A stretch of DNA of 63,443 nucleotides, filler included, from Craspedostauros australis (taxonomy: Eukaryota), in assembly GCA_030167865.1 (NCBI GenBank). It is 12 parts of 12 records of this genome, joined end to end, with 100 filler letters (N's around TTAATTAATTAA, not from the genome) between each part and the next. Parts side by side here need not be neighbours in the genome. Positions count along the whole stretch, not along the records: positions 18,759 to 33,209 come from JALAGF010006223.1; 11 more parts are not named here. One strand, given 5' to 3'. A program made the translations under genes and the position numbers. Positions 10,535 through 50,928 of the stretch are shown here, piece by piece (within the stretch, counting starts at the first letter, position 1; each line of letters begins with the position of its first letter). The notes beneath the pieces were generated by a model, which worked only from the letters and a program-made list of their open reading frames with translations, was not told the origin of the DNA and did not search any database.

Positions 10535-11396
10535 TGTCGAGTTGTACATGTGAGTATACGTCAAGATGTACGTGTATATGTGCATCGTTCACCCGTTATT
10601 CTCTCATACACACTTGGACGGTATAANNNNNNNNNNNNNNNNNNNNNNNNNNNNNNNNNNNNNNNNNNNNNNNNNNNNNNNNNNNNNNNNNNNNNNNNNN
10701 NNNNNNNNNNNNNNNNNNNNNNNNNNNNNNNNNNNNNNNNNNNNNNNNNNNNNNNNNNNNNNNNNNNNNNNNNNNNNNNNNNNNNNNNNNNNNNNNNNNN
10801 NNNNNNNNNNNNNNNNNNNNNNNNNNNNNNNNNNNNNNNNNNNNNNNNNNNNNNNNNNNNNNNNNNNNNNNNNNNNNNNNNNNNNNNNNNNNNNNNNGAC
10901 CACTGCATCACCAATGGAACGTGACATCTGGAGAGCAGAAGGACACCTACTGACGTCGACAGGATGTCAACATGTCACCACATCGACAGCTGTCTCCAAG
11001 TCAGAGCAGGAGGCGAAGATACGATGACCCATGANNNNNNNNNNNNNNNNNNNNNNNNNNNNNNNNNNNNNNNNNNNNNNNNNNNNNNNNNNNNNNNNNN
11101 NNNNNNNNNNNNGAATGCGGAGCACGCATCGAACACGGAGTATCGTGTAGCACGAGCACACGATGGTGAGAGAGAGAGAGAGAGAATACAGAGAGGAGCG
11201 AGAGAGCATCTCGCGTACCGACTCATAGTCGAAGATTGAATCTACGAAACAGATTGAAGCGCCGAGAGCATCGGGCAAGAGAACAGGCGTACACCGAGAG
11301 CATCTGAGTAGCCAACTAATGAAATAGCAAACGAACGACTATCAACCACCACCATCTTCCACGATCGTAGGTTACCGTGAGCGGAACTTGCCAACA
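10535..11396 (+). repeat. Family A 3' LTR preceded by polypurine tract AGGAAGGG (10527-10534)
   Basis: Begins TGTCGAG directly after the PPT, ends GCCAACA; homologous to 28875-29659, 39165-39934 and 49546-50928(-). Confidence 0.92.
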
Positions 11397-14300
11397 CTAC
11401 GGCGTCTCCAGCCGATACTACGAGAAAGACGCGGAGTGCGATATGCACGGAATCGGCCAGGGCAACGGCGCAGGCCCAGCGATCTGGGCCGTCATCAGCT
11501 CGGTGATGTTCAAGGCCATGACCCGACTGGGGCACACGTCGTCGCTGGTCACTCCGTCAGGAGAGTATATACCCATCCTGGGGTCGGCCTTTGTCGACGA
11601 CACGGACTTAATCAGAATCCAACGACCGCAGCGAAATGACGCCGATGTCTCCAGCTTCCGAAGGACGGTTCAAGACTGGAGCCGCCTCCTCCAAGTCACA
11701 GGAGGAGCTCTGGTGCCGGAAAAATCAGCCTGGTGGGCCACGCAGCCAGAGTTCGTCAAGGACAAATGGGTGTGGAGCGATAGCGAGACTTCGGTAACCA
11801 TCAGCATTGACGATGGCCGAGGAGGAAGCGCCGTGATCCCGAGCAGGACAATGTCACAACCAGTGTTCACACTGGGGGTGTTTATCTCGTTCGATGGGAA
11901 CAACGAGGAACAAATTCAGGTCTTGCGGAAGAAAGCAGAAGACTTCGGCGGAAGGATGCGTATGGCGCAGATCTCCACGGACGACGCGCGGTCGGCTCTC
12001 ACCCTGCGGTTCATGAAATCCATCGAGTACGTCATGCCAGTTGTCCAGCTCACTCCACTTCAGTGGCGATACATCATGGCCCCAGCCCTGCTGGCAGCCC
12101 TGCCAAAAATGGGATGCTCGTGGACTCTGCCCCGGGACTTAGTGTATGGCACGAAATCGCTCGGCGGTTTGGGCATAGTACACCCCGTGAACTTCCAGCT
12201 GATGGCGCAAATCCAGCTGGCTTTCGACGAGGTACACCGAGGTACTCAGACGGGCAAGATGATTATCTGCTCTATACAAGCACTCAAGGAAGAGCTGGGG
12301 ATAGGAGGATCCCTGTTCCAACACTCGTACTCCCGAATGGGGCATTGTGCAACCAGGTGCTGGGTGTCCGGTCTGTGGAACCAGCTTCAGGGAACTGGCA
12401 TCGAAGTGTGCGAATTCACTTCGTCTTGGAAACCCCAACGGCGAGGCGATGCTTTCCTCATGGATCTATGGGTCCAACAGCATGTGAAGGGAGCACAGTT
12501 CTATCACCTGAACATGGTCCGCCACAAGATGGGGGTGATGCGGATGTCGGATATCGTTTCCGCGGATGGCACCAGAATAATGCCTGAAGCGCACGATGGC
12601 ACTCTGACTTCTGAAATGCCACAGCGATGGGCACGACAACCCGAACGGCTCCCCAGTGGCTGGTGGAAGGAATGGCAACAATGGTGCAAGTCGATGTGCT
12701 TTCGAGGCCTGCTTTTGAACAAGCCCCTTGGAAGGTGGCAGAGAGAGGACGGGACATGGCGTTGGTGGAAGGCACCATACCAGGACGACATTTTCGATCT
12801 GGACGCTGATCCAGTCCTTCGCTACCGACCTCTCCCACGACGGCGCACCCGTTGCCAGCAGTACTCTCTGGCCACGCCTGCTACCGACGTCCCAGCCGGC
12901 CTCAAACGAGTCTCTGTTGTTTACACTGAACAGGGCATCGAATGGGACGGTCATATCGGACTGACATGCCCTCCTGAGGAGCCAGCTCCTGCATACGAGC
13001 CCATCGAAAACATGCGAGGGACCATCCCCTTACAGGAGGTGGCACTGGCCGCGAACAGGGGCAATTTGGTGCTGGTGAGCGACGGTTCGTTCAAGGACCA
13101 GCGGGGCACGTCGGCATCGATCGCATACGATGTCCAGACCAGGGAGTATGTCTACTGCCAGACGTTCGTCCCAGGGCCGCCAGAGGTCCAGAGCGCCTAC
13201 AGAAGCGAGCTCGCCGGAATCTGGGCGTCCCTTGCAATGGTGGCAGAGCTCCCCGGACTACAGGACGACTGTACCATCACCATAGCTCTTGACGGTAAGC
13301 AGGCGCTCCTGCAAGCTCAAGAGGACTACCTGCGGCCACACCAGCGGCACTGGGACATCCTCACAGAGATCCAACAGCTCCGACGTGGCATCAAAGCCAC
13401 CCTGAAGTGGGAATGGGTGAAAGGCCATCAGGACGACACAGGCAAGAAACTAACGCTGTTGGAACGGCTCAACGTGGAGGCGGACGCAAAAGCAAAACAG
13501 TTCTGGTCCGACACGGGCTCCAGACCACACGTGAAAACCTGGGTGACCGCCACAGGTCGATGGAGGCTCCGCCTACGTGACGCCGACCATTCTCACGTGG
13601 ATCCCGAGGCAATGAACGAGCTCCTTCAGACGGCATCAGCAATGAAGTACTGGTCCACCAAATTTCAGTGGAATCAGAACCAGGTTCGCCAGATCGATTG
13701 GCGAGTGTACAAGATGGCCCAGCAGTCCAAGCTGAACCGTGGGACTGCTCGTTTCATCTCCAAGTGGGCTTCCGGCTTTGTGGTGGTCAACCACAAACTC
13801 CATCAGACAGGTCAACTACAGACGCCGAAGTGCAAGTTCTGCAACAGCGACGAGACCACTCAACATGTTCTACGGTGCCCGGAGCATCATGAAGCATGGA
13901 CCGAGGCTACTTCCGGCCTCATTGATCGCATGGTGACGATTGGAACAGCCCCACGGCTGGTCCAACGCATGCGAGTTGGCCTCGTGAAATGGAGACGGAA
14001 CACTCGGTCCACCGATGTGCAAAGTGAAATTGGGTGGTACCCTCTCATGCTAGGGTTTCTCCATGAGGACTGGGCTCTCCATCAGGCCCGCTGGATGACA
14101 ACGCATGAGTGCCGGTACCCAGACGCCAACTCTTGGGCTAGGGAGGTCGTGCGGTGGATCTGGAAAATCCCCTGGGAAATATGGTTGGCATGGAATGCGA
14201 AAGTGCACGACGAAGAACAGCATCCTACGGTGCAGGACTTGCGGCGCAAGGTTCGCCGAATGATGCAGGGTGCAAGTCAGGATATGAACGAAGCAGAGAT

Positions 14301-21071: not shown

Positions 21072-22025
21072 GGGGCACTGACTCAAGCATGCGAACAAAG
21101 GTCTGGCATCCATGACATCTTCGAAAATGGGAGCTCACAGGTGTTCGCACTTTTCAATCACACGCAGATGGGCGCGACCAAAAGAGAGTTCCGTCTCATG
21201 GCTCCTGCTTCGATGGTGTAAAAATCTGCGTCGCAGAGTACCGATGGTGGCGAAGGAGGTCGCACTCTCATTGGGAATTGCTTCTCCGTCTTGGTGTCAA
21301 CGATTGCCAGAGATTGTCACTTCCGATGTGGCACCGAAGCATCGAACAGAATCGAACACCATCAGTCAGATTCCAAGATAACCACGGAGAGTACTTCAAC
21401 CCATGCAAGCGCAACGTGCCAAGTTCACGACGACGGAACTTCATCGGGTGCTTCTGGAAGCTGCAAGCCATCATTTGTTCTGCAACAACTCAACACAGCA
21501 TTACGAGGACACGCTCGAGCTGGATGACATCTGCTGCGATCTTCTGCGTGTCCAAACTCCAGGGTGCGACCACGTCTCGAAAGTACCATGCAACGTGATG
21601 CGAAGGTGACTCTTTCGGAGAGCTTTACTTCTGATCCATCGTCGGGAAGCTGTCGAAGAGCAGTGGAGCAGTTGTCAGAAGTCTTTGGGCGACCCGCCCA
21701 GTGATGAGACTAGTACTTCATCGAACGCTTCTGGAAACCTCGCTGCACCCCAAGATTCTGCATCAACGCAGCACTGTGTTGCAAACTCGGAGCATGTGCG
21801 ATCTGATGCGATCTTGTGCGTGTTTGAATTGGCGTGCGACCATGTCTTGAAGGTGTACTGGAATGCAACAGGAGTGCAGCAACGTGCTCCACACATTCTC
21901 CAACCATGCTCTCACAAATCCCAAACTCAAACAAGTTGTGGAGCTGGGAAAGCCACAAGCTCACATCCTCAAGCAAACATAATTCTCATTCAGCTCTTGA
22001 CAAACAATTCGAAAACGTAAGTACG

Positions 22026-23987
22026 ATGCCGCCAAAAAAGAATGAACAGTTCATGAGTCTCAGCGGTGGTGGAGTCGTTCTCGAGGAGATCGAAGAGGAG
22101 GAAGAGGATGCAAGTGATGATGAGGAGGATATCCGACAACAGATCAGCGACGAGAAGAAGAAGGGGGCCAAAGCAAGAGTGGACCTCGATGAAAGCATCA
22201 AGGCAGCCCAAAAGCTGATGGAGGAATGTAAGTCAGACACAACCAACAATCTACCTACTGAACTACTTTCTCAATGCAACACTGAGATCAGCAATTGCAG
22301 TGAACAACTCGACAATGCCACCAAATCCCGCGAGGAACTTGCCGCAAAGTTGCGTCGATGCCGACTGAAGCGTCGCATGAGAGAATCTAGTATCAAGGAC
22401 GTGCTGGGCAAACTCGATGCTGTGGAGAACGAAATTGATCTCGTGTTCATCATGGACGCTACTGGTTCAATGGGGCCATACATCGACGGTGCCAAGCAGA
22501 CCATCCGCAAGATTGTCGAGAAGATCAAGGCTGATGGAAAGGGGAAGGATCTACGGTTGGGGTTCGTGGCCTACCGAGAGATTTACAATGGATCTGATCG
22601 ATATCAAGTACTTGATTTCGTGGATGAAGTCAGTGTCTTCGAACGCTTCCTGGAGGGAGTCAAGCCCATTGGCAACTACGACATTGCAGAAGACATGGCA
22701 GTTGGCATCCAAAAGGCCAATGGGCTCTCCTGGATGCACCCCACCAGAGTCGCCTTCATTGTTGGCGATTGTGCATGTCATGGAACCGAATTCCACGATT
22801 ACAGTAAGTCTGACGACAACTACCCGACCGGCACTCCAGGCATCAACATCGTCTCGGAGCTATCCAAACTCAGGACCAATCCATCGGGTGGAACCATGAC
22901 CGTCTTCTTTGGTCGCATCACCAGCCTAACGGACAAGATGATTGAGCGGTTTGCGTCCGTCCACAACATTGATCTCGAGGTTGTGGACTTCTCTTCTCCC
23001 GAAATGGTTGAGAAAGTCGTGGTCAAGAGCGTCCGCCACTCTGTCTTCAACTCGGTGTCGTTGATCGACTCTCAGAGCAAGTCAGTGGAGTACGAAGCAG
23101 ACAGAGGGAAGATGAAGAAGGCCAAGATGAAACCATACACAATCTCCAAAGAATTTCCAACGCACCTTGGATGGAAAGCAACAGTGCCTGTCAACGTGTA
23201 CTGCAACACCCGCAGCATCTCCGTCCAGTCTTTGCAAACGCCTCTCTCGGTCAACAAGTTGGCCGAAACCTACACTTCTCGGTCCGCTTTCGTGAAACGC
23301 GCCAACCTCGAGCTCCAGCTCCAACTGGCGAAATCCCCGTTTGCTGAGGGGTCATGCCGCATTGCATTCCATGCAAGGCTGGCGCGTTGCGTTGCCGAAC
23401 TCAACCTCAACAAGAACGCCATGGTGCTCAAGACCAACAAGCACCATGGGCCAGGAATCAACGATAGACAACGATACTTCCAGCAGATGGAGGTATCATC
23501 CATCGCGTGCTTCCTTGCCAACGAATACAACAAGTCAGCCCTCCGTCCTTCGCATTGTGCCAAGATCAAGGTTCTGCAAGCGTGCGTGGTGGAGGAGGTC
23601 AGCGACGAAAATGAAGCAGACGGAAACCGTTTCTACTGCGGTGAAGACGTGCTGCCAACCACCGGAACGCCATTCACCAAGTACTGCAGCAACACGGGAG
23701 CCTGGAATCCCGATCACATCGATGAGTCGCTCCTTCGCTTCGTGGAGTTCTCGTACGTCTTCTCCAAGAAGTACTTGATCGTGGCGGATCTTCAAGGTGT
23801 CAAGGCCAATGGCAAGTACTACTTGACCGACCCTGCGATCTTGTGCACGGACATGAGACGCTTCGGCTGCACCAATCTGTGCACACCAGGAATCAAGCGT
23901 CACTTGGCATCAGTTCGAGACAAGCTCAAGATGTTCAAGAAGAAAGCTGGAAGCTCGGTCTCATGTGGCTGTTGGAGGCAAGGGTAA
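22026..23987 (+). CDS. Coiled-coil + vWA + alpha-kinase (eEF2K/MHCK family, VwkA-like architecture)
   Basis: vWA: IDLVFIMDATGSM, LRLGFVAYR, AFIVGDCACHG; alpha-kinase: PFAEGSCRIAF, FTKYCSNTG, IVADLQGV, YLTDPAI, FGCTNL. First ATG taken at 22026. Confidence 0.92.
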   Translation: MPPKKNEQFMSLSGGGVVLEEIEEEEEDASDDEEDIRQQISDEKKKGAKARVDLDESIKAAQKLMEECKSDTTNNLPTELLSQCNTEISNCSEQLDNATKSREELAAKLRRCRLKRRMRESSIKDVLGKLDAVENEIDLVFIMDATGSMGPYIDGAKQTIRKIVEKIKADGKGKDLRLGFVAYREIYNGSDRYQVLDFVDEVSVFERFLEGVKPIGNYDIAEDMAVGIQKANGLSWMHPTRVAFIVGDCACHGTEFHDYSKSDDNYPTGTPGINIVSELSKLRTNPSGGTMTVFFGRITSLTDKMIERFASVHNIDLEVVDFSSPEMVEKVVVKSVRHSVFNSVSLIDSQSKSVEYEADRGKMKKAKMKPYTISKEFPTHLGWKATVPVNVYCNTRSISVQSLQTPLSVNKLAETYTSRSAFVKRANLELQLQLAKSPFAEGSCRIAFHARLARCVAELNLNKNAMVLKTNKHHGPGINDRQRYFQQMEVSSIACFLANEYNKSALRPSHCAKIKVLQACVVEEVSDENEADGNRFYCGEDVLPTTGTPFTKYCSNTGAWNPDHIDESLLRFVEFSYVFSKKYLIVADLQGVKANGKYYLTDPAILCTDMRRFGCTNLCTPGIKRHLASVRDKLKMFKKKAGSSVSCGCWRQG

Positions 23988-28465: not shown

Positions 28466-28874
28466 TGTTGAGACCATGACTCCTACACCGTCCTCTACCC
28501 GGCAATGAACCGATGGGCAAACCAGATGAGGAGCGATGAGATTGTTGTTGTGGTGTAATCAGATATTTTAAACTGGATTTATGGCTGCTTGTTGTTGATG
28601 TCCAGTTTGTTGTTGTTTTTCTTGTGTTTGCTTGCTTGGTGCTGGTGGTGGCTGCCAGCCGTTGAGTTGCAACGATGAATGATGTCATTGGCATTTCCTG
28701 GTTTCTTTGGTTTCGTGCCATCTGTCGTCACAAATTTGGGCATCTGCTCCAACACACTCCTTCGGTCCAAGCAGAGCTTGCTTGTATGTCTATGTCTTAC
28801 CTTTGCTGGGACCGCTGATTTTTCGGTTGAGGATGATGTCGTGGAACTTGCGGAACCTTGTCCCCTGCAGTGGC
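28466..28874 (-). mobile_element. Family B 3' end: 3' LTR (28466-28754), PPT GAAGGAGTG and 120 bp of internal sequence, interrupted by Copia A
   Basis: LTR matches 20784-21071; purine tract abuts TGTTGG on the minus strand. Confidence 0.9.
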
Positions 28875-31800
28875 TGCCGAGATGTACATGTGAGTATATG
28901 TCAAGATGTACGTGTATATGTGCATCGTTCACCCGCTATTCTCTCATACGTACTTGGACGGTATAACTACACTCGTGTAGATAGTATGTTGTGATTCGTC
29001 AGAATTACAGTGGAAATGGAACACACGAAAAGGAGCAAGATTTCTGGAGGAAATTTGCAATCGACGATTTCTGAGAGAATTGGAAGATCGTCCGTNNNNN
29101 NNNNNNNNNNNNNNNNNNNNNNNNNNNNNNNNNNNNNNNNNNNNNNNNNNNNNNNNNNNNNNNNNNNNNNNNNNNNNNNNNNNNNNNNNNNNNNNNNNNN
29201 NNNNNNNNNNNNNNNNNNNNNNNNNNNNNNNNNNNNNNNNNNNNNNNNNNNNNNNNNNNNNNGTCAGAGCAGGAGGCGAAGATCCGATGACCGAAGGGCA
29301 TCAGCATCATGGATACAGAAGGTGAACTTCAAATGGCGAGTACTCACGGAGTAGGAACCAGTACTGAATGAACGGAGTGTCGAATACGGAGTACGTATCG
29401 AACACGGAGTATCGTGTGCGACGAGCACACGATGTTGAGAGATAGAGAATACGAAGAGTGGCGAGAGAGGATCTCGCGTACCGACTCATAGTCGGAGACT
29501 GAATCTACGAAACAGACAAACGTGCCAAGAGCATCGGGCAAGAGAACGGGCGTACACTGAGAGGATCGGAGTAGCCAAGAAATGAAATAGCAAACAGACG
29601 ACTATCAACCAACACCATCTTCCACGATCGTAGGTTACCGTGAGCGGAATTTGCCAACACGTTTATAAACGATAGATCAGGGCGAGCCCATGGATCGGAT
29701 TGTGCGAGGAAGACGAACATCATTCAAGAGCAGCAGGCTGAATGAGCGAGGAAGAGGAATTGAAAGACATCCCTCTGTCCAACCTGACTATCAAGAGACA
29801 AGAAGGTGCAAGTGAGACTCCACCATGACAAGAGAAGGAAGTAGCAGCGGCTACTGTTCTATCAAGCGCAGACGCAAGCGCAATCGACGAGACCGAAGAG
29901 GAATGGTTTGCGAGACTACATCGCGAGGAGAAGAGCATTCTCAAGGCGAGCAAGCAAGAGGAGACTGGTGTGACGGAGAGCATTCGCACAGCCAAACAGG
30001 GTGAGAAAAGTGAGACACCATCAGGAGGAGAAATTGTGAGGAAAACAATCTCCGCTAAACAACTAGCGAAAATCGAAGAAACAACAACACAGAAACAAAC
30101 GGAAATCAAGGGCGCGAGCGCACCAACAACGAAACAACAAGTCAACATGGCGACATCAGCCAACACGAACAAGCAACACATCAAGGCGCCGATGTTCAGC
30201 AGTGAACATGAAGACTACAGCGCATGGGAGTCCCAAGCGAAGGCATACGCTCATGCACAGAAGACGAGAGACGTGATGTTGGGCAAGACGAAGATCCCAA
30301 CAATGAGCGAGATCGCAGCAGCCACCCAAGAAGACAAGGAGGCACTGGAGGAGACCCACAAGCTGGCATGCGACTGCTTCAGCGATCTGATCCTCATGAT
30401 GGATGCAGAGAAAGGAAAGGGCAAGTAGGCCATCCAATACATCAATCGGTGCATCTCCGACGATTATCCCGAAGGAGATCCACATGCAGCGTGGAACGTT
30501 CTCGCGGAGAAGTTCCGCCCATCTGACGCGGTGACGAAGATCAAACTCAAGTGTCAATTCAACAACAAAAATATGAAGAGAGACACAGACCCTGACATCT
30601 ACATCACGCGACTCGAGGGTCTACGATCGCGTCTCCACGACGTCAAGTACGAGATCACAGACGAGGAAATGATCATGCAAATCCTCAGCACGGTGAGTAG
30701 CGAATACAAAACGCACATCGTGAACTTCCAACATCAACTCACGTTCAATCCGGAACTGGTCACCATCAATGTGATCAGAGGAGTACTCTGCACAGCACAC
30801 GCCACCCATCAAGGAGGAAAGGCGTACATCGACGATTTCCAAGACAGCAACACGAAAAGCAACGACACCGGCCTCACGAGCACTGGTAACTTCAAGGGGA
30901 CCTGCCACAACTGTGGTGTGTATGGTCATAGATCCGCCGATTGCCCAGAACGCGAGAAACCGAACAACAAGAAAAACAACAACAACAATAACAACAACAA
31001 ACTGAACGGAAAGCGCAACAAGGGAAGCAGCTTCAACGGAAAGTGCAACTACTGTGGCATCTTCAGACACCGTGAGGCAGAGTGCCGAAAGAAGAAGTTC
31101 AACGAGAAGAAGAAGGCCGACGAACAGGCCAACACAGCAACACAAGGACACGACAAGAGCGGGCACGAGATGGTACTCTCGGCAAAGGACATGCCGCTCT
31201 GCATATTGGTGTCCGACGACTACATCGAAGACTCCTTCTTCGATAACTTCGAGTGCGTCGGGAGTGACGACGAAGTACAGAACGATGAGATCGTCCTGGA
31301 GTGGCTCAGCGAGGAGCCAATCATCCACGAGGTGGATCCAAGACGCGAAGTGAGCTACGAATGCTGCTTCAACGCAAACAACCTGATCGGTTCATACGGC
31401 GACGGAGCCGAGATGGGCAACGAGGCCATCGATAGCGACATCGAAGAGGCCATGAGTGAAGAGGCCGACGATGAGATCAACGAGAATGACAGAGACCGAG
31501 ACGAGACGAACGGCGGCGCGGCACCGCCTCCTCCAGCGGCGGGGAACAACAGATCGGGCATCTTCGATGAAGATGACAGCGACGAAACCGAAGACCATCC
31601 AGACGGCAGCTTCAACCCAAACAAGCGTGTCGTCTACCCAGGGAATATCGACTTCCCACCGATTGAGAATCCCAACGACTCAAACTACCTCCATCATCAT
31701 GATACCATTCCATACGCAACGGAAACAGCATTGATAATCCAGAAGCAGCTCATCTTCGATGCCGTGATGGAAGCAGGAACGAACCTCTTCCCAGGACACG

Positions 31801-33209
31801 TACAAGGAGTGCTCAGACCGATATGGGTGAACATGATGGGATCCATCCTATCCGAGAACTTCAGATCAATCGAAGAGATTCTCGCCAATTCGGTCGTCAT
31901 CAACCGCATATTGGAAGCGGACAATACGGAGACGATCCCAGAGACGGATCTGCACTACATCCTTGGAGGATGCATGCGTGTGCTCTTACGCGAGCGATCA
32001 CGCGTCCACCCATACGATCCAGCCACAGGATCACATCGAAGCAACACGATTCCATCGGACTACGCGCAACTACCCGACAACATGGATGACGAGGAACGTC
32101 ACAATCCATACAACGAAGATGGAGTTCACGAAGATGAAGAGGAAGACGGCAGCTTCAACGACGAGATAGCTGCGGCAGCTGTGGAGCAACTCCACGAGCT
32201 GAGCACCAGACACAAGGACAAGGTCAACAAGGACACTTGGCTCGCCGACAGTGGAGCTTCGTGTCACATCGTCAATTCAGACGCCGCTCTCTTCAACGTG
32301 CGGCACATCAAGTCATTCGTCCAAGTGGGAGACAGNNNNNNNNNNNNNNNNNNNNNNNNNNNNNNNNNNNNNNNNNNNNNNNNNNNNNNNNNNNNNNNNN
32401 NNNNNNTCATCCGGCTCGATGACGTGAAGTACACACCGAAAATGGCGGTGAACCTTTTCTCCACGAACAAGGCTCTGTACAACGGTTACCAGCTTGGTAG
32501 CAACAGCATTCTGATGGACATCATCAACGGATCCGGAACGAAGATCGTGTTCGATCGAGTCTTCCCCACATCCAACGGATTCATCACGGGAGTGCAGATG
32601 CATCCCATCATGCCAACAGACGACGACAAGGCTTGCACAGCCATCGTCAAGAACCCATCCAAGGAGATCAGCGTGGTGAGCTTGCATCGAATGCTCGGCC
32701 ACGCGCCACTCGAAGCCATGAAGCGAACAGCCGCTCAATACGGATGGAAGATCACTGGCGAGATGCCGGTATGTCGCGACTGCGCGGTCGCGAACGCAAG
32801 AGTAAAGAACATCTCGAAGGCAACGATTCCAAGAGCGACTCGCCGCGGCGAACGCCTCTTCATTGACATTCGTTACACTAAACACATAAGCTTCGGAGAT
32901 AAACGCTACTGGACCCTGATCGTGGACGACTGCACGGATCACTGCTGGAGTTTCTTNNNNNNNNNNNNNNNNNNNNNNNNNNNNNNNNNNNNNNNNNNNN
33001 NNNNNNNNNNNNNNNNNNNNNNNNNNNNNNNNNNNNNNNNNNNNNNNNNNGACAACAGCGGAGAGAACAAATCCACGCAGGATATTCTCATCGATGCAGG
33101 ACTGAACGTGAAATTCGAATTCACAGCATCGAACACGCCGCAACAGAACGGCAGAGTAGAACGCAAGTTCGCGTACCTCTACACCAAGATCCGCTCCATG
33201 CTCAACGGA
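28875..33209 (+). mobile_element. Copia family A 5' half: 5' LTR (28875-29659) and gag-protease-integrase from 29742, with premature stops at 29826 and 30426
   Basis: Two CCHC knuckles (CHNCGVYGHRSADC, CNYCGIFRHREAEC); protease WLADSGASCH; HRMLGH...CRDC; DNSGEN; one reading frame throughout. Confidence 0.95.
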
Positions 33210-33309: not shown

Positions 33310-33885
33310 GAGGTCTTGGATCCTTCTGGAAGGTACTCATACCGATGGATCTGGATATCATGGCGTCTTGTGTGTGGCAGTACTGTGAGCTACGCATCAA
33401 ACGACATCTTGATCTGTAGATTTAAGTCCTTCCCACATGGATCTATCACTTTGAACTCAATATTCGTACACTTTGGAGGAGATTNNNNNNNNNNNNNNNN
33501 NNNNNNNNNNNNNNNNNNNNNNNNNNNNNNNNNNNNNNNNNNNNNNNNNNNNNNNNNNNNNNNNNNNNNNNNNNNNNNNNNNNNNNNNNNNNNNNNNNNN
33601 NNNNNNNNNNCTTCTAAACTGATCTAGGAATTCAAACTGGGTGACCGCACTTTTTGGAGTGTGCTTGGAGTTGTCCAGTTGATTGGATCTCTGAAAACGG
33701 CCTGTGCAATGCAGTGGTATGCATAATGCTGTACAAGGTGATGCGTACCGTGCAGTCTCGTCCAACGAAGTACTGCGTGATATCAGCATCCAAATATTTC
33801 GATAACTTCCAGACGGATCTAACACTGCAGGCTCCATGGCCGTACTCTTGGGAGTGTGCTTGGAGTGGTGCAGTTGGTATCAATC
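33310..33885. repeat. Degenerate ~180-195 bp tandem repeat (same family as 18759-19250)
   Basis: GCTTGGAGT anchors at 33663 and 33858; blocks shared with the array at 18759. Confidence 0.6.
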
Positions 33886-36800
33886 TACATTGGTTGAAGC
33901 TCAAAGACTTCAANAACANCATCAAGAAGCTGAACAACCACGTTCGCAACCAAGTCTTCACTCTCCAGTCCAAAGGCGAAACAGTTGGCAGCAAAGTCAC
34001 CTTTGCACTCATCACTGCATACAACACATCATACAATGAGGAGTTTGTCAGCCACATCCAGCGCTGCAGTGACTGCGGTACTCCAGACTACATCAGTCTC
34101 ACGAATACTGCTGAGACCAAGTACCAGAGCGTGGTCAATGCCAGCACATGGAACCGCCTTTCTTGCGACAAGCAGCTCCTTGCTCTCTGAGCCAAGACGA
34201 AGCAGCTCAAAGCGTCAATCACCAAATCATCCAGCAAGCAAGCAAACAACAAGAAGGACAACAAAGGGACAGCTTGCCACAAGGTGGCAACCACCCTCTT
34301 GCCAATCAAGATCCGCCAAAGGGCAACAACCCCAGGCACTTTGTCCACCAGGGAACCACCTTCCACTGGTGTGACAACCACAAGGCATGGGACAAGCACA
34401 AGACATCCAACTGTCACGCCCGATCCAGCAAGCATGCTGACTCCTCTGGGAAGAAGTGCTTGTATGACAAGAAATCGTCCTCATCCAAATCCGCCAAGAT
34501 ACACACCAAGTCAGCTCCTCACGTCCACTTCGACGACGGCAACGGAAACTTCAACAGTAGTCAGCATTCCACTCCCAGCAATGGAAACATCAGCAAGAAC
34601 TGACATGTCAGCACGCCCATCCAGTCAACGTTATCAGTCACAGACCTGCAAGGCACCTCTGCAATGCAGATGGCATTGCACCGGATGGGTGATGTGCCAA
34701 TCGGAATCGACACTTGCATGTTGGCCACAGTCTCTGGACAATGCGGCAACTTCAACAACGATCTTCAACCTATCCATGGTATGACCATAGAATGAGTTGG
34801 AGGGTCCATCCCCATCCAATCCAAGGGCACACTGTCATGGACAATACTTGACAATGATGGCAGGCCCACTGCGGATTAAGATATCCAACGCTTTCTATGC
34901 GCCACAGCTTCGCATCCATCTGTTCTGTCCGCAGCAATGGTCTGACCAAGGTCCCCACGATCATCACGGCAGGCACCTGCGTACCTGCGCGACAAACGGC
35001 AACTACACTGTCCTGCGCTCCTCACGTTGCAAGGTCACAGTGTATCATCATCCAGGCACCAACCTGCCGTTGATGTCTGTCGCCAACACCAAGCGACATG
35101 CGCCAGCATTCCTTGCTACTTCCAGTCCTCCAAGCAACTCAGAACTTCTCAACATCAACAATGTCCCCAATGACACGATGGAGGTTCACGAAGATCCCAA
35201 GCTTGCCAAGTTGAGGCCCGATCCTCTCCAAGACAACAACACACTGGTCCGTGATCAGTTGGCAATACATCCTGTTGGTGCCTCTGACGCACAAGGACAG
35301 CTACTCCGGTGGCGTCATCACTTGGGACACCTACCCTTCCGTGTCTTGCGCAACATGGCGTCACACAGCATCATACCACGACACTTGGCCAAGGCCGANN
35401 NNNNNNNNNNNNNNNNNNNNNNNNNNNNNNNNNNNNNNNNNNNNNNNNCAACGCGACTGCAATGCACACATAGATCACTCCATAAAACTTAAAATGAAAC
35501 CAAGTAGAAGCTGAAAGGGTCCACCATATGTAAATAGACTACGAGGATTATGTATATGTAATTAGTTTTAAAATCCCAGAAAAACGACTAGACTCTTCAT
35601 TTCAAACAGTTGGTCGACTCGCTCGAGGGGCTCATACACATGCGTGACAGTGTTTGTTGATCAGTACCTTGGTATTGACTACGTTCACTTGCAGCTCACC
35701 CAGTCTGGTGCCAACACACTGCAAGCCAATCAGGCTTTCGAGCGCTATACTCACTCATTCGGTGTCTGCATACACCACTACCACCCTGACAAAGACAGAT
35801 TCGCTGAGCAACTGTTCCGCACAGCTGTCGCAGCAGCCAATCAAACCATCACATTCTGTGGAGTCAATGCTCACCATCAGAATGGCGTCGCCGAGCGACG
35901 CATCCGCAACCTCCAAGAGTCCACTTGCTCGATGCTCTTGCATTCGCAGCACTATTGGCCTGATGTCATTCATCCGTCTCTATGGCTGTATGCTCTGTGT
36001 TACGCCTCTGAGATCCGAAGGAACGCTGCTCGAGAGGGAGACATATCGCCACTCCAGCGATTCGCGCAGATCGAGGTCCAACCCTTGATGCAACACTTTC
36101 ACACATTTGGATGCCCTGTATACATCCTCAAGGCCGCACTGCAACAGGGATCCCAGGTTCCCAAGTGGAGCAGCCGAGCCAACATTGCCATATTCCTTGA
36201 CATGTCAGCTGAACGTGCGAGCAGCGTACCTATCGTTCTCAAGATCGACACAGGGTACATATCGCCACAGTTCCATCTGAACTTCGATGACAGGTTCCAA
36301 ACGGTCAAGACCAATCCACTCCTGCATCCTGGCGCATCGCAGTGGCAGCGTCTCACACACATCGACGAACCAGCCGAGCCCTTGCAACAGATTCGCTCCG
36401 AACGCATCACACGTGCTGTTCAGCACCAGCTTTCCGCAAGCACGCGTCCTCCAGGGACCACACACACTGCACCTGACGCCAAGCCATTCCAGCTTGACAT
36501 GCAGCACAAGTTGCATGACCTTCCGAGGTCCAGCCTTCCAAGGCACACTGTTCCAAGACAACCAGCAAGCTCACCGTCAGAGGGAGCTATGCCATCGCCA
36601 CACAGAACGCATCACGATCCTCTCCATCCGCAACAGAATGTGCAGAGACCAACCAGCCTACACTCCAACTCCAATCCTACCACACATACACTGCTCAATC
36701 CTTCCACNCATCTGACGTCCTCAACATGAACTCGGGCGATCTGCACCCCATGTCATTCGCAGCAACACTTGCAGACGATGACACTATGTACTGGGGGCAA

Positions 36801-38712
36801 ATGCAGAAGCAGCCTGGCCGCGACAAAATCATTGGGGCAATGCACAAGGAAATCGAAGACCACCAATCCAGACAACATTGGGAGGTCGTCCAACGCAATC
36901 ATGTGCCAAAAGGGCACAAGATCCTGAAAGCCGCCTGGTCATTCAAATGCAAACGCAGACTTGCAACCGGCGAAATCTACAAGTGGAAAGCACGGCTATG
37001 CGTGCATGGAGGAGAGCANNNNNNNNNNNNNNNNNNNNNNNNNNNNNNNNNNNNNNNNNNNNNNNNNNACATGAACTCGGGCGATCTGCACCCCATGTCA
37101 TTCGCAGCAACACTTGCAGACGATGACACTATGTACTGGGGGCAAATGCAGAAGCAGCCTGGCCGCGACAAAATCATTGGGGCAATGCACAAGGAAATCG
37201 AAGACCACCAATCCAGACAACATTGGGAGGTCGTCCAACGCAATCATGTGCCAAAAGGGCACAAGATCCTGAAAGCCGNNNNNNNNNNNNNNNNNNNNNN
37301 NNNNNNNGCAACCGGCGAAATCTACAAGTGGAAAGCACGGCTATGCGTGCATGGAGGAGAGCAACAACATGGTGTCAACTACTGGGAAACATTCGCACCT
37401 GTTGTGCAATGGTCCACCATCCAGACATTCCTCACCATGGCCGTCCAACGGCACTGGCACACTTGCCAAATCGACTTTGTTCTGGCGTCCCCACAAGCGG
37501 ATGTGGAATGCAACATCTTCATGCAAGTACCTCAGGAGTGCAACGTGGACGGAGACAGCAGGTCTCACATTGTCAAGCTCAAGAATACTCTGTACAGCAC
37601 CAAGCAAGCAGCATTGGTATGGCATCGGCATGTGGTTGACAGCCTGATGCAGCATGGGTTCCAGCAAAGCCAAGTCGACGAATGCCTTCTCTGCGAGGGC
37701 AACACATCCATTCTGCTGTACGTTGATGACACCATCATCATTGGCCCACGCAAACACGAGATCGATGACATCATCGAGCGCCTCAAGGCACGGTTCACAC
37801 TAACCGACGAAGGCAACATGACTGAGTATCTAGGCGTTCACATCCAACGTACTGATGACACCATCACACTCACACAACCGCAACTCATAGATCGAATCAT
37901 ACGAGCAGCCAAGATCGATCCTGACTCACCAGGACGAACCTATTCGACGCCAGCCATCAAACCACTCCTATACAAGGACACTGGTGGCCCCGCTGCCACT
38001 TGGCGATTCGAATATCGGTCAGTTGTGGGGATGCTCAACTTCCTCACATGATCAATGAGACCTGACATCTGCTTCGCAGTCCATCAATGCGCACGCTTCA
38101 TGGCTCATCCGATGAAGTCACACAAAGATGCCATCGAATGGATTGTACGATACCTTGCTCACACATGGGATATGGGACTCCGCATCTCACCTACCCAATG
38201 ACTCCATTCACTGCTATGCTGATGCAGACTTCGCAGGAGGCTTCACACAAGCCAACAACGACCCCAACACGGCAAACAGTCGTACCGGATACGTCGTCCT
38301 GTATGCAGGATTCCCCATCATATGGAACTCCAAACTGCAAACAGAAGTCGCACTCAGCACCACAGAAGCCAAGTACGTGGCTCTCAGCCAAGCTCTATGA
38401 GAGGTTATACCCATCATACACCTCATCAACGAAATGAAGCAGCACATATCGTCATTCGACACTTCTCTGCCAACAGTTCACTGCGCAGCATTTGAGGACA
38501 ACTCCGGTGCCCTCGAACCCGCAAACGCACCCAGAATGCGTCCTCATACCAAACACATCAATGTCACATACCATCACTTCCGTGAAGCTGTCAGCAAAGG
38601 GCTCATCACTATCGAAAAGGTCGACACGTTGGACCAGATGGCCAATGTATTCACCAAGCCCTTGGCACATCCACTATTCGAATCTCTGCGATTGCGACTA
38701 TTGGAATGGTAA
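33885..38712 (+). pseudogene. Copia family C gag-pol, decayed by stops and frameshifts
   Basis: WCDNHKAWDKHKTSNC Gag knuckle; HHLGHLPF; AHHQNGVAERRIR; KWKARLCVHG, LLYVDDT; YADADFAG, VALSTTEAKY, TKHINVTYHHFRE. Confidence 0.93.
35449..35599 (+). mobile_element. AT-rich insertion within family C integrase, possibly the 3' end of another LTR
   Basis: Non-coding AT-rich block ending GACTCTTCA, after which integrase sequence (QTVGRLAR...VTVFVD) resumes. Confidence 0.4.
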
Positions 38713-38745
38713 GCGCGGTCCGCTCGTGCCACCGACAAGAGGGAG

Positions 38746-39041
38746 TGTGCAGATTAAGTGCCAATTCATGAATCTGGCCAGCGAGAATAGAGGGCAAATG
38801 AAGTCCGGTTGTGTCCGGCTTTGCCTTCCAGTGTCGGACTTTGGCAGGTCAAAAGGGGAAGTGAAACTGCCAACGTCAGCNCGGTTAAACGTAGTGTGAC
38901 CACGAACGTAGATGAGACGATTGAGAATGTGTTTTGAGTTGATTTGGTGGTTGTAAAGCTTGAGTTTTGTAAGATTGTTATTTTTATGAGATTGTTTTGG
39001 TTGAAGGTTGGAGAGGAAAACGAGATGGGCTGGTCATCACA
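38746..39041 (+). repeat. Probable family C 3' LTR
   Basis: PPT AAGAGGGAG followed by TGTG; candidate end CACA at 39041; no second copy to confirm the end. Confidence 0.5.
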
Positions 39042-39164
39042 CTGCTCTGCTGTTGGTTGTCGCTNNNNNNNNNNNNNNNNNNNNNNNNNNNNNNNNNNNN
39101 NNNNNNNNTTAATTAATTAANNNNNNNNNNNNNNNNNNNNNNNNNNNNNNNNNNNNNNNNNNNN

Positions 39165-42100
39165 CTGACGTCGACAGGATGTCATCATGTCACCACGTCG
39201 ACATCTGTCTCCAAGTCAGAGCAGGAGGCGAAGATCCGATGACCCATGGATACTGAAGGTGAACTTCAAATGGTAAGTACTCATGGAGTAGGAACCAGTA
39301 CTGAACGAACGGAGTGTCGAATGCGGAGTACGCATCGAACACGGAGTATCGTGTGGCACGAGCACACGATGTTGAGAGAGAGAGAGAGAGAATACAGAGA
39401 GGAGCGAGAGAGCATCTCGCGCACCGACTCATAGTCGGAGACTGAATCTATGAAACAGATTGAAGCGCCGAGAGCATCGGGCAAGAGAACGGGCGTACAC
39501 CAAGAGGATCGGAGTAGCCAACTAATGAAATAGCAAACGAACGACTATCAACCAACACCATCTTCCACGATCGTAGGTTNNNNNNNNNNNNNNNNNNNNN
39601 NNNNNNNNNNNNNNNNNNNNNNNNNNNNNATGGAGTAGGAACCAGTACTGAATGAACAGAGTGTCGAATGCGGAGTACGCATCGAACATGTAGTATCGCG
39701 TAGCACGAAGCACACGATGCTGAGACAGAGAGGAGCAAGAGAGCATCTCGCGTACCGACTCATAGTCGAACGACCGAATCTACGAAACAGATTGAACCGC
39801 CAAGAGCATCGGGCAAGAGAACAGGTGTACACCGAGAGGGTTGGAGTAACCAAGTAATGAAATAGCAAACGAACGACTATCAACCAACACCACCCTCCAC
39901 AATTGTAGGTTACCAATCACAGAACTTGCCAACACGTTTATAAACGATAGATCAGGGCGAGCCCGCGGATCGGATCGTGCGAGGAAGACGAACATCATTC
40001 AAGAGCAGCAGGCTGAATGAGCGAGGAAGAGGAATTGAAAGACATCCCTCTGTCCCAACCAGCTATCAAGCAAGAAGAAGGTGCAAGTGAGACTCGACTT
40101 CAAGAGCAGAAGGAAGCAGCCGCGGATACTGTCCTATCAGGCGCAGAGGCAAGCGCAATCGACAAGACTGAAGAGGAACGGTCTGCAAGACTACATCGCG
40201 AGGAGGAGAGGATTCTCAAGGTGGTAAAGCAAGAGGAGACTGGTGTGACAGAGAGCATTCGCACAGCCAAACAGGGTGAGAAAAGTGAGACACCATCAGG
40301 AGGAGAATTTGTGAGGAAAGCAATCTCCGCGCAACAACGAGCGAAAATCGAAGAAGTGACAACACAAAAACAAACGGAAATCAAGGGCGCGAGCGCACCA
40401 ACGACGAAATGACAAGACAAGATGGCGACACCAGCCAACATGAACAAGTGACGCATCAAAGCGCCGATTTTCAGCGGTGAACAAGAGGATTATAGCGCAT
40501 GGGAGTCCCAAGCAAAGGCATACGCTCGTACACAGAAGACGAGAGACGTGATGTTGGGCAAGACGAAGATCCCAACAGTGAGTGAGATCGCGGCAGCCAG
40601 CAGAGAAGACAAGGATGCATTAGAGGAAACCTACAAACTGGCAGGTGACTGCTTCAGCGATTTGATCCTCATGATGGATGCAGAGAAAGGTAAGGGCAAG
40701 CAGGCCATCCAATACATCAATCAGTGCATCTCCAATGATTACCCTGAGGGGAATCCACACATGGCATGGAACTTTCTCGCGGAGAAGTTCCGGCCATCCG
40801 ACGCAGCAACGAAAATCAAACTCAAGCGTCAATTCAACAACGAAAGGATGAAGAGAGCCTCAGACCCCGACGTATACATCACGCGACTCGAGATACTACG
40901 CTCACGTCTCCACGATGTTGGATACACAATCACTGATGAGGAAATGATCATGCAAATCCTCAGTACGGTGAGTGTGGAATACAGAACACACGTCGTGAGT
41001 TTCAACCACCAACTCACGTTCAATCCGACAGTGGTCACCATCAACGAGATCAGAGGAGTACTTCGTGAAGCACACGCCACGCATCAAGGCGGAAAGGCAT
41101 ACGTCGACGATTTCCAAGACAGTAACACGAAGAGCAACGACACCGGCTTCACNAGCACCNGTAACTTCAAGGGGACCTGCCACAACTGTGGTGTGTATGG
41201 TCACAGATCCACCGATTGCCCAGAACGCAAGAAATCGAACAACAAGAAAAACAACAACAACAACAAGATGAACGGAAAGCGCAACAACAATCGCAACAAG
41301 GGAAGCGGCTTCAAGGGCAAGTGCAACTACTGTGGCATCTTCGGACACCGCGAGGCGGAGTGCCGAAAGAAGAAGTTCAACGAGAACAAGAAGAACAACG
41401 AACAGGCCAACGCGGCAACGGAAGGACACGACAAGAGCGGACACGAGATGGTACTCTCAGCAAAGGACATGCCGCTCTGCATGTTGGTGTCCGACGACTA
41501 CNNNNNNNNNNNNNNNNNNNNNNNNNNNNNNNNNNNNNNNNNNNNNNNNNNGCCACGCATCAAGGCGGAAAGGCATACGTCGACGATTTCCAAGACAGTA
41601 ACACGAAGAGCAACGACACCGGCTTCACGAGCACCAGTAACTTCAAGGGGACCTGCCACAACTGTGGTGTGTATGGTCACAGATCCACCGATTGCCCAGA
41701 ACGCAAGAAATCGAACAACAAGAAAAACAACAACAACAACAAGATGAACGGAAAGCGCAACAACAATCGCAACAAGGGAAGCGGCTTCAAGGGCAAGTGC
41801 AACTACTGTGGCATCTTCGGACACCGCGAGGCGGAGTGCCGAAAGAAGAAGTTCAACGANNNNNNNNNNNNNNNNNNNNNNNNNNNNNNNNNNNNNNNNN
41901 NNNNNNNNNNNNNNNNNNNNNNNNNNNNNNNNNNNNNNNNNNNNNTGCCGCTCTGCATGTTGGTGTCCGACGACTACATCGAAGACTCCTTCTTCGATAA
42001 CTTCGAATGCGTCGGAAGTGACGACGAAGTGCAGGACGATGAGATCGTCCCGGAGTGGCTCAGCGAGGAGCCCATCATCCACGAGGTGGATCCAAGACAC

Positions 42101-42661
42101 GAAGTGAGCTACGAGTGCTGCTTCAACGCGCACGACCTGATCGGTCCATACGGCGACGGAGCTGAGATGGGAACGGAGGACATCGATATCGAGATCGAAG
42201 CGGCCATGAATGCAGATGATGCCGAGGCCAACGAGAACGGCGTGGATCAAGGCAACAGCGACGTCTCCGGAGACGATACAAATGGCGGCGAGGCGCCGCC
42301 TCCTCCAGCAGCGGGGAACAACAGAATGGGCATCTTCGACGAAGATAGCGACGACGAGCCAGAAGATCATCCAGATGACAGCTTCAATCCAAATGAACGA
42401 GTCATCTACCCAATCAGAATCCAATTCCCACCAGAGCCGAATCCCAGAAGAGTCGACGACATCTACTGACGCAACATGTTCCCATACCCAACAGTCACTG
42501 CAGAGAGAATGCAATGGCAACTCATCCATGACGCAGTGTTGACTGCTGGATTGCCAATGTTCCCAGGGATCGTGAACGGACCATTGCTGCATGTATGGGT
42601 GAACATGGTGAGCACCATCCTATGCGAGAACTTCAGATCGACTGAAGAGATCCTTGCCAAC
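39165..42661 (+). mobile_element. Copia family A second 5' half: two partial LTR segments ending at 39934, gag from 40017 with premature stops
   Basis: Collinear with 29263-31890; same knuckles and same post-LTR palindrome. Confidence 0.93.
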
Positions 42662-48965: not shown

Positions 48966-49545
48966 GTTGGTCGTTGGTTGTTGAGCTGTTGGTAGACAAA
49001 CAATTGCTGGATGATTGCTCAATGTGTTCACGGTCTTATGATGAAGATGCTGACTGATGGTATGAGACCAGACTGCTGCAAGGAATAGCAAGGTTGTCGT
49101 TGTCTTGTTCGCACGTTCTGTTTCTCTGTTCCATGATCGCACTCATCACGAATCATCAATCAAGCAGGCTTTTGCATCAGAGTGTTTGACCCGATCGACT
49201 CAACAGGCTGGATGCACGACCCACGTATGGTACTCAAACAGGCCAATCAACGAACAGATGGCACACTGCCCTTTCCTGACACTAGGCCTAATAGGGACAG
49301 GCCAACTAGAACTATCAACAACAACAACAACCATGCAAGGCCAACATCAGAAAGTCACAACACAAGCACATAAGATCACAGGAATTCATCAGTCACTGTC
49401 GTCGCATGATCACGGCGCACAGTACTGCATGAAACTTCACTGCTGATCTCCTCTCTTCCTTTTTGGTTGTCCTCGTCATGTCCGGCCTCCAGGACCTCTC
49501 TCGCCGCTTCGCCGACTCCCTCTTCGAGAACGATGGTGGTGGGGG

Positions 49546-50928
49546 TGTTGGCAAGTTCCGCTCACGGTAACCTACGATCGTGGAAGATGGTGTTGGTTGA
49601 TAGTCATCTGTTTGCTATTTCATTACTTGGCTACTCCGATGCTCTCGGTGTACGCCCATTCTCTTGCCCGATGCTCTCGGCGCTTCAATCTGTTTCGTAG
49701 ATTCAGTCTCCGATTATGAGTCGGTACGCGAGATGCTCTCTCGCTCTTCTCTGTATTCTCTCTCTCTCTCTCTCTCAACATCGTGTGCTCGTGCTACACG
49801 ATACTCCGTGTTCGATGCGTACTCCGCATTCAACACTCCGTTCATTCAGTACTGGCTCCTACTCCATGAGTACTTACCATTTGAAGTTCACCTTCTGTAT
49901 CCATGNNNNNNNNNNNNNNNNNNNNNNNNNNNNNNNNNNNNNNNNNNNNNNNNNNTCTCCGTACGTGCAATCATCGCGGTGTCGATGTTGCCATTTCCAA
50001 GAGGAGACATCAATTTCGTGACGGTCGGAGAGAGAGTTTTGTTGTTCACTCTCTTCCGATCAATTTGGGGGAACAAGGTTCATCCAACGGTTTGACCCGA
50101 TTGTCCGTTCAGGACAGGTCATGTCANNNNNNNNNNNNNNNNNNNNNNNNNNNNNNNNNNNNNNNNNNNNNNNNNNNNNNNNNNNNNNNNNNNNNNNNNN
50201 NNNNNNNNNNNNNNNNNNNNNNNNNNNNNNNNNNNNNNGAGTCACGCTTCAATCCCGCTCAAACTCTGAGCAGTCGGTCATTTGACTAACTAGACTAAAT
50301 CTTAACACGACTAATAGGAATACTAGTTTGAGCTAATAGTATTCTCTCTCTCTCTCTCAACATCGTGTGCTCGTGCTACACGATACTCCGTGTTCGATGC
50401 GTGCTCCGCATTCAACACTCCGTTCATTCAGTACTGGCTCCTACTCCATGAGTACTTACCATTTGAAGTTCACCTTCTGTATCCATGATCCTGATGCCCT
50501 TCGGTCATCGGATCTTCGCCTCCTGCTCTGACTTGGAGACAGATGTCGACGTGGTGACACGATGACATCCTGTCGACGTCAGTAGGCGTCCTTCTGTTCT
50601 CCAGATGTCATGTTCCATTGGTGATGCATGAGTCTGTCAGATGATATCGTCATCTGAGGCTTAGTTGGGAAGTACCTCGAGATTCTCTTGGTACCTTTGA
50701 TGGATGGACGGACGATCTTCCAATTCTCTCAGAAATCGTTATTTGCAAATTTCCTCCAGAAATCTTGCTTCTTTTCGTGTGTTCCATTTCCGCTGTAATT
50801 CTGACGAATCACAGTATACTATCGACACGAATGTAGTTATACCGTCCAAGTGCGTATGAGAGAATAACGGGTGAACGATGCACATATACACGTACATCTC
50901 GACATATACTCACATGTACATCTCGACA
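49546..50928 (-). repeat. Family A LTR sequence in two overlapping pieces (49546-49905 and 50339-50928) separated by gaps and unrelated sequence
   Basis: Reverse complement starts TGTCGAG at 50928 and ends GCCAACA at 49546. Confidence 0.9.

Follow-up and report, generated by a model that had tools for sequence, protein, structure and literature searches.

A self-complementary site at the primer-site position of a Ty1/copia retrotransposon family in Craspedostauros australis and of its diatom-type relatives

We analyzed a 63,443-nt stretch of the genome of Craspedostauros australis (assembly GCA_030167865.1; the whole stretch is called the window here) that contains several copies of a Ty1/copia long terminal repeat (LTR) retrotransposon, family A. 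Immediately after the 5′ LTR of this family, at the position of the tRNA primer site, lies a perfect 12-nt palindrome, which we call PAL1. A palindrome stands at this position in every related element whose LTR junction was recovered, its sequence changes between lineages on both sides of the pairing, and its predicted duplex is far more stable than its predicted hairpin. We propose, with confidence somewhat short of even, that PAL1 is the start site of minus-strand synthesis in a large diatom-type Ty1/copia clade, where it would replace the tRNA site through self-priming in trans.

The LTR of family A is approximately 794 nt long when assembly gaps are allowed for, reads TG[C/T]CGAGATG...TTGCCAACA, and occurs in several copies in the window (Table 1). 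These bounds are of the TG...CA type (TG[C/T]CGAG...CCAACA); a target-site duplication was seen instead in a relative, locus L060. The 3′ end of the LTR is visible in four copies (A, B, C, and D), all of which end in GCCAACA. Copies B and C both continue into CGTTTATAAACGATAGATCAGGG. Since copies A and D share the GCCAACA end and then run into unrelated sequence, ACA marks the end of the LTR, and the palindrome follows it without an intervening base.

A previous sequence-only reading of the window had described a palindrome directly after GCCAACA in both 5′ ends, and we confirmed it in copies B and C, where it follows ...TTGCCAACA in each case. The palindrome CGTTTATAAACG has only these two matches in the window when up to one mismatch is allowed, compared to a chance expectation of 0.06, and none of 100 shuffles gave two matches. 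The same reading had noted that the palindrome is intact amid CpG decay, and this is also correct: the last 120 LTR positions include 20 differences between copies B and C, nine of them of the CpG-transition type, and the palindrome includes none. Over the whole 82-nt leader the two copies differ at 3/82 positions, which indicates local conservation relative to the adjoining LTR. PAL1 of family A is flanked by A on one side and A on the other, so that the final A of the LTR falls outside the pairing. Further into the leader, copy B reads CCATGG (29690-29695) and copy C reads CCGCGG (39965-39970), an adjacent double change between two 6-nt palindromes; this change is compensatory in form, yet two CpG decays would give the same outcome.

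Protein searches yielded distant homologs, with at most 51% identity for the reverse transcriptase (RT) contig and at most 40% for the gag-protease-integrase part; the named homologs were from diatoms only (Attheya, Fragilaria, Nitzschia, and Skeletonema). We assembled a query alignment from the family A gag-protease-integrase, 16 protein homologs, and two other copia pieces of the window. A scan of metagenome contigs with this alignment gave 596 pattern matches, 364 of which were relatives; keeping the best 80 resulted in 79 Copia loci with 28-45% identity in the integrase region. In viral contigs, no relative was found with either a single protein or the alignment, and bacterial and archaeal genome contigs gave only six short stray contigs, none with a junction. 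These hits (L080-L085) are short copia integrase fragments in bacterial metagenome-assembled genome bins (Cytophagales, Desulfobacteraceae) and are most likely stray eukaryotic contigs. Among the 79 loci, the 23 with the longest frames encode 1352-1829 aa, with the protease motif D[ST]GA present in 19/23, the RT motif YVDD in 16/23, and a constant order of motifs. The LTR ends of the relatives read TGTT...AACA; a polypurine tract (aggaaggg) precedes TGTT in L045, L060, and L062, and the target-site duplication of L060 is GACTCA.

In 54 of the 79 loci, ACA is followed immediately by a palindrome of 8-14 nt: 50 are perfect and of the form CG...CG, three are perfect and of the form TA...TA, and that of L060 contains one G·T. 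None of the remaining 25 contigs has the region intact: 23 start inside the frame, the contig of L027 begins 68 nt upstream of the ATG, and in L038 the site itself is broken. The palindrome is thus present in every locus that contains the junction (54/54), including 22 of the 23 loci with the longest frames. The border itself was proven by comparison of 5′ and 3′ LTRs in six loci (L015, L060, L061, L062, L075, and L070). Of nine repeat pairs examined, five were true LTR pairs in which the 3′ copy enters flanking DNA; the repeats of L006, L067, L068, and L079 are not LTR termini and were not used. As judged from these sequences, the results suggest that the related elements with a junction carry a self-complementary site in place of the tRNA primer site.

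The position of the palindrome is far from random. Within the loci, a 12-nt palindrome follows ACA at 45 of 8890 sites on the element strand compared to 4 of 6833 on the other strand, with 20 shuffles averaging 2.1 such sites and reaching 5 at most. The loci hold 144 palindromes of 12 nt, 45 of which have ACA directly before them. We also analyzed covariation in an alignment of 38 loci with a 12-nt site and the two window copies (40 rows, 30 of them distinct), the rows having been chosen for such a site. All six pairs change on both sides, in a total of 43 cells; none of 500 shuffles reached this level, and sliding the partner column destroyed the signal. The test put forward in the sequence-only reading, namely whether self-complementarity is kept in relatives while the sequence changes, therefore has a positive answer: 18 different palindromes were found, and all six pairs covary. 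Conservation within the site is limited to the CG and about two further positions, with CG clamps at both ends in 27 of the 30 distinct rows. In 14 of the 30 distinct rows the final LTR base, an A, also takes part in the pairing, which in a few extends to ACA...TGT. The center of the palindrome is complementary in all 54 junction loci.

Some copies depart from this pattern. In L038 (430-470), the copy is broken at or inside the palindrome, with unrelated upstream sequence running on into the leader; the closely related L040 has an intact palindrome. Decay of the palindrome was seen in older or degenerate copies, with the leading CG missing in L067 (6935-6965) and a C-to-T change giving the G·T pair in L060 (5615-5626). 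Unlike these degenerate copies, the long-frame relatives keep the palindrome perfect.

In the standard replication of LTR elements, the LTR border is the start of minus-strand synthesis, and the 3′ end of the primer must therefore pair with the first bases after ACA. These bases vary by lineage and stay complementary to the other half of their own site, a variation that no conserved cellular RNA could follow and that argues in favor of a primer encoded by the element. We searched for other candidate primers and partners. The earlier claim that no TGG and no half-tRNA-Met word follow the LTR was upheld, in that CG follows the LTR and both TGGTAGCAGAG and GGTTATGGGCCC are absent from the window. 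TGG was found at the border neither in the window nor in the 54 junction relatives, and words of the initiator methionine tRNA (tRNA-iMet) type had zero matches in the window, as did the half-tRNA word of the earlier reading and its one-base variant. There were no Rfam matches across the whole window, and no tRNA genes were detected in the window or in the 40 of 85 loci that were scanned.

Likewise, there was no partner for the site elsewhere in the element. It had been noted that the LTR contains no complement of the site, and we found accordingly that no LTR stretch complementary to the 24 nt following the LTR exceeds 6 nt, a length that shuffled queries reach as well. A complement of the type that the retrotransposon Tf1 has in its LTR was sought in family A, L045, L060, and L061; the longest was 5-7 nt, in line with the shuffled expectation, so that the Tf1 arrangement is not present in these elements. 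A downstream partner anchored at the border was not enriched across 52 junctions (mean 4.75 nt compared to 4.54 nt in shuffles), so that there is no counterpart of the hairpin partner CHSeq2 of fungal GalEa elements. The palindrome does not occur a third time in the window. In the material searched, no sequence other than the site itself proved to be its consistent complement.

The predicted energies of the 26 distinct sequences differ greatly between the two ways in which such a site can pair, with a mean of -2.0 kcal/mol for the hairpin (zero for two variants) and a mean of -16.4 kcal/mol for the homodimer. A hairpin would leave the center unpaired and free to vary; the constant complementarity of the center, together with these energetics, therefore favors pairing between two RNAs over snap-back. 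The sequence-only reading had allowed for both, i.e., an RNA that snaps back on itself or that pairs with the second packaged genome. Our results fit the second variant better than the first, with the center always complementary and the duplex far more stable, while priming itself is a step that we infer.

Another perfect palindrome, 8 nt or longer (PAL2), starts between -3 and +4 nt of the end of PAL1 in 23 of 52 distinct junctions, compared to 3.1% of random positions. PAL2 is found in 17 of 33 distinct combinations, with GATC, AGCT, GTAC, TCGA, or GGCC as its core. In one clade PAL2 has a G·T pair, and in L077 a 3-nt insertion forms a loop; these variants point to pairing at the RNA level. 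PAL1 itself lacks a flanking stem and occupies the position of the primer site. In family A, an imperfect hairpin is predicted at the position that PAL2 has in many relatives (Table 1), and a difference between copies B and C at 29701 turns a G·U pair of this hairpin into G-C. The fold of the family A leader as a whole has a z-score of -0.3.

Based on these findings, we propose that within the particle PAL1 of one genomic RNA would pair with PAL1 of the second copy, and the paired sites would make up a perfect duplex, 8-18 bp long and directly adjacent to U5. One strand would be cut at the 3′ edge of PAL1, leaving a 3′-OH that is paired to the first base after the U5 of the partner, and reverse transcriptase would extend this new 3′-OH through U5 and R. 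PAL2 or the hairpin would help to hold the dimer or mark the cut site. This would be self-priming similar to that of Tf1, but in trans and with the primer site itself being the primer. Tf1 relies on its own RNase H for the equivalent cut.

Several points weigh against this proposal. The nuclease and the place where it cuts are assumptions modelled on Tf1, and we infer that the RNAs pair as a dimer in vivo, that one strand is cut, and that priming follows. The rows of the covariation alignment are 100% paired by construction, given how they were chosen, and weight is to be placed only on the two-sided changes and on the position of the site. The 18 variants need at least 26 changes on the integrase tree (82 rows), a number that may be an over-count given that this tree is poorly resolved, with 25 of its 74 inner branches open. 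G·U pairs occur in 1 of 180 cells, a low share for an RNA helix and one that is also compatible with recognition of the site as DNA. PAL2 occurs in only part of the clade, and not in perfect form in family A. The hairpins after PAL1 fold like random windows (mean z of -0.37); being no better than these, their stability was dropped as evidence. Finally, both window copies are dead, as each has two early in-frame stops in gag.

Other explanations of the palindrome can be considered in the light of the same evidence. PAL1, together with PAL2, might be a dimer-linkage or packaging signal that merely abuts U5, with the minus strand started by another primer. Perfect palindromes with strong predicted homodimers do resemble dimerization sites, a second palindrome is often adjacent, and palindromes have been proposed to mediate the formation of Ty1 RNA dimers (PMC4974528). 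Nevertheless, we consider this explanation unlikely: the LTR border demands that the 3′ end of a primer pairs with the first bases of PAL1, where the CG and about two positions that are conserved are too little for a cellular primer, and our searches revealed no other conserved candidate site or tRNA-type word. Moreover, the retroviral dimer site comes in addition to a primer site, whereas no primer site is present here. A related possibility is snap-back in cis, in which the RNA would be cut after PAL1, fold as a hairpin, and use its own 3′-OH to copy its own U5 and R. Snap-back asks the same of the sequence as pairing in trans does, namely self-complementarity at the LTR border, but the loop of such a hairpin needs the central 4 nt to be unpaired and free to vary, and these are complementary in 54/54 junction loci. 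With predicted hairpins that are also very weak, snap-back appears improbable.

The palindromes might alternatively act as double-stranded DNA, either as a symmetric site for a dimeric protein of the host or the element (with a role in transcription, silencing, or integration) or as a structure in a DNA intermediate. The best argument for this is the perfect Watson-Crick symmetry of the sites, in which G·T is nearly absent, and the CG clamps at both ends are also in its favor. However, 18 variants of unlike sequence and of 8-14 nt in length are ill-suited to be the site of one protein, their register is tied to the LTR border, a landmark of reverse transcription, and the PAL2 variants tolerate G·T and a loop insertion; we regard this explanation as decidedly improbable. 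Half-tRNA priming is the type found in Drosophila copia and Ty5, and a cellular RNA complementary to CGTTTATAAACG..., whether a tRNA half or a fragment of a small nuclear RNA or ribosomal RNA, might be the primer here in the same half-tRNA-iMet mode. Internal tRNA priming is indeed known in copia-type elements, e.g., FunCo1 (PMC5445492). Yet the site changes between lineages while staying self-complementary, an even-centered perfect palindrome would be ill-matched to a stem with a 7-nt loop, and in the window tRNA-iMet-type words are absent and there is no Rfam or tRNA match, which makes a cellular primer very improbable indeed.

The idea of a palindromic site unrelated to tRNA is not wholly new. 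Fungal GalEa elements of the copia type lack a primer site and carry a palindrome, the 'Conserved Hairpin Site', after their 5′ LTR (TGT...CA) (Donnart, 2017; PMC5445492). The fungal motif is 10 nt long with a GATC or AATT core and includes the final A of the LTR, and its two main forms, A followed by CTGATCAGT and A followed by CTAATTAGT, differ at mirror positions (PMC5445492). A further fungal sequence, CHSeq2, pairs with the palindrome from 2-41 nt downstream with a conserved A/A mismatch (PMC5445492). The authors report no fitting model and no Tf1-like complement, describe the feature as setting fungal GalEa apart from all other copia elements, and place both GalEa and the diatom CoDi-like elements in copia Branch 1 (PMC5445492). 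The diatom-type elements resemble fungal GalEa, as described there, in the lack of a tRNA-complementary site, the palindrome at the border, and its compensatory variation, with the final LTR A included in some of the distinct rows, as given above. They differ in their motif, i.e., ACA followed by CG-N(4-10)-CG, and in having no CHSeq2-type partner above chance but often an abutting second palindrome instead. The likeness concerns features of the site; checks of the relatives for the motifs published for GalEa gave mixed results. In family A, the 9 nt after PAL1 (29672-29680 and 39947-39955; ATAGATCAG) fit the CHSeq2 consensus A(C/T)AGAT(T/C)AG (PMC5445492). This ATAGATCAG does not pair with PAL1, and the match may reflect shared ancestry or coincidence.

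Similarities and differences are also apparent with other systems. In the fungal Ty3/gypsy elements Tf1 and Tf2, the first ~11 nt of the transcript, which belong to the LTR, pair in cis with a non-palindromic primer site (Lin & Levin 1997, as summarized in PMC5445492 and PMC6934838). The proposed mechanism would share with Tf1 that it is tRNA-free and takes its primer from the element's own RNA, and the cut beside an RNA:RNA duplex is borrowed from Tf1; unlike in Tf1, the LTR holds no complement, the site is complementary to itself, and the elements belong to copia rather than gypsy. Metazoan GalEa elements have a primer site for the 3′ end of tRNA-iMet, TGGTAGCAGAGC (PMC5445492). As in tRNA-iMet-primed copia elements, the diatom-type site stands directly after the CA of the LTR, and the relatives have a normal polypurine tract before the 3′ LTR (aggaaggg, then TGTT). 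In contrast to such elements, TGG and tRNA-iMet-type words are absent, and the variation between lineages is self-complementary. For Ty1 and Ty3, a 12-nt palindrome at the 5′ end of tRNA-iMet has been proposed to bridge RNA dimers and so couple priming with dimerization (PMC4974528). The diatom-type sites resemble this palindrome, the Ty1 PAL sequences, and the retroviral dimerization initiation site (DIS) in being short, perfect palindromes of the 5′ leader that are able to pair two genomes. In the accounts we drew on, however, retroviruses, Ty1, and Ty3 keep a separate tRNA site, and the DIS palindrome lies in a hairpin loop; here, the palindrome is at the position of the primer site. In the literature searched, no palindromic site was described for diatom elements, with only the fungal GalEa paper and one paper on bivalve terminal-repeat retrotransposons in miniature that cites it being found. 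The main text of Maumus 2009 and the available parts of Llorens 2009 and Benachenhou 2013 contain nothing on CoDi primer sites.

The features of family A in the window and the proven border palindromes of five relatives are listed in Table 1. By its gene content, with gag and its CCHC knuckle, protease, and integrase in this order, family A is a Ty1/copia LTR retrotransposon; the RVT_2 domain lies on the next contig and may belong to another family. The leader of 82 nt is followed by a copia-type gag beginning MSEEEELKD..., a CCHC knuckle, a protease, and the N-terminus of an integrase. In copy B, Pfam recognizes copia-type gag, a CCHC zinc knuckle, and Pol_BBD within a single frame, which also encodes the N-terminus of the integrase.

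Table 1. Features of family A in the window and border palindromes of relatives with compared LTRs.
Feature	Position	Strand	Remarks
LTR copy A	10898..11397	+	Assembly gap inside; ends ...GCCAACA, then unrelated CTACG...; border control; located by self-BLAST, ends read directly
5′ LTR copy B	28874..29659	+	TGCCGAGATG...TTGCCAACA; assembly gap 29096-29262 inside; located by self-BLAST against other LTRs, ends compared with A and D
PAL1 copy B	29660..29671	+	Perfect 12-nt palindrome CGTTTATAAACG; begins at first base after LTR
Predicted imperfect hairpin, copy B	29669..29703	+	Base uses last 3 nt of PAL1 (ACG); -9.3 kcal/mol, z -1.1, weak; at PAL2 position of many relatives
Copy B gag-protease-integrase (N-terminal part) frame	29742..33209	+	ATG at 29742; in-frame stops at 29826 and 30426; runs to contig end
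5′ LTR copy C, 3′ part	39630..39934	+	50-N gap and another LTR fragment (39165-39579) upstream
PAL1 copy C	39935..39946	+	Same sequence as PAL1 of copy B
Predicted imperfect hairpin, copy C	39944..39978	+	-11.4 kcal/mol, z -1.0
Copy C gag and downstream frame	40017..42661	+	ATG at 40017; in-frame stops at 40410 and 40449; assembly duplication 41076-41383 vs 41552-41859
LTR copy D	49545..50925	-	Gaps and duplicated stretch; ends ...GCCAACA at 49545, then unrelated CCCCC...; second border control
Border palindrome, L015			CGCTAATTAGCG; LTR pair
Border palindrome, L060			CGATAATTATTG; LTR pair, target-site duplication
Border palindrome, L061			CGCTAGCG; LTR pair
Border palindrome, L062			CGTTTTAAAACG; LTR pair
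Border palindrome, L075			CGTTTATAAACG, the same 12-mer as in the window; LTR pair

The window consists of small contigs strung together through 11 N44-TTAATTAATTAA-N44 linkers and is interrupted by many more gaps; copy B is therefore not established as one contiguous element. Near-identical duplicated stretches flank many of the N gaps and have the look of assembly artefacts (596-805 = 1062-1271, 36724-36933 = 37069-37278, and 41076-41383 ~ 41552-41859). The contig at 33310-39064 carries three frames without a Pfam match (33645-35492), followed by an integrase C-terminus and RVT_2. Sequence comparison indicates that this contig is probably not the continuation of copy B and that its RT may belong to another family: the integrase part of family A is 58% identical to 6487-7116, yet the RT of 33310-39064 is only 24-30% identical to that of 6487-9930. 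The copia fragments at 6487-9930 and 58383-60887 are on contigs of their own, without LTRs or junctions, and the former is the closest relative of family A found anywhere, going by the integrase part.

Other repeats were also observed in the window. A 289-nt direct repeat with 97% identity (20784-21071 and 28466-28754, the starts being 7.7 kb apart) brackets an alpha-kinase gene at 21828-23987, and its second copy ends ~120 nt upstream of the copy B LTR. A long frame with a weak RNase H match (11371-14466, + strand) starts at the end of LTR copy A; approximately 890 nt of it recur inverted at 54629-55518 (- strand) with 84% identity, representing another repeat family. Tandem repeats of 102 nt lie in an ankyrin-repeat gene on the - strand (48135-48944), and tandem repeats of 174 nt at 16517-17715 have long open frames on both strands.

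How reverse transcription starts in copia elements without a tRNA site has been a question since the 2017 report on GalEa, which treats the palindromic site as unique to one fungal clade. The same kind of site is now seen across a broad marine clade of diatom-type copia elements, many of which have intact long frames. The 18 compensated variants narrow the options to a primer encoded by the element, with no partner in the LTR or leader and with a predicted two-strand duplex rather than a hairpin. Annotation pipelines that demand a tRNA-complementary site would under-call such elements in diatom and plankton genomes or place their borders wrongly. More tentatively, the palindrome may represent a third way to start the reverse transcription of LTR elements, in which the primer site of one genome primes the other, dimerization and priming are one interaction, and no host RNA is used. 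If the diatom-type clade and fungal GalEa inherited palindromic self-priming, it would be old within copia Branch 1. Such an age, if true, would bear on the proposal that tRNA priming arose late (Benachenhou 2013; PMC3601003).

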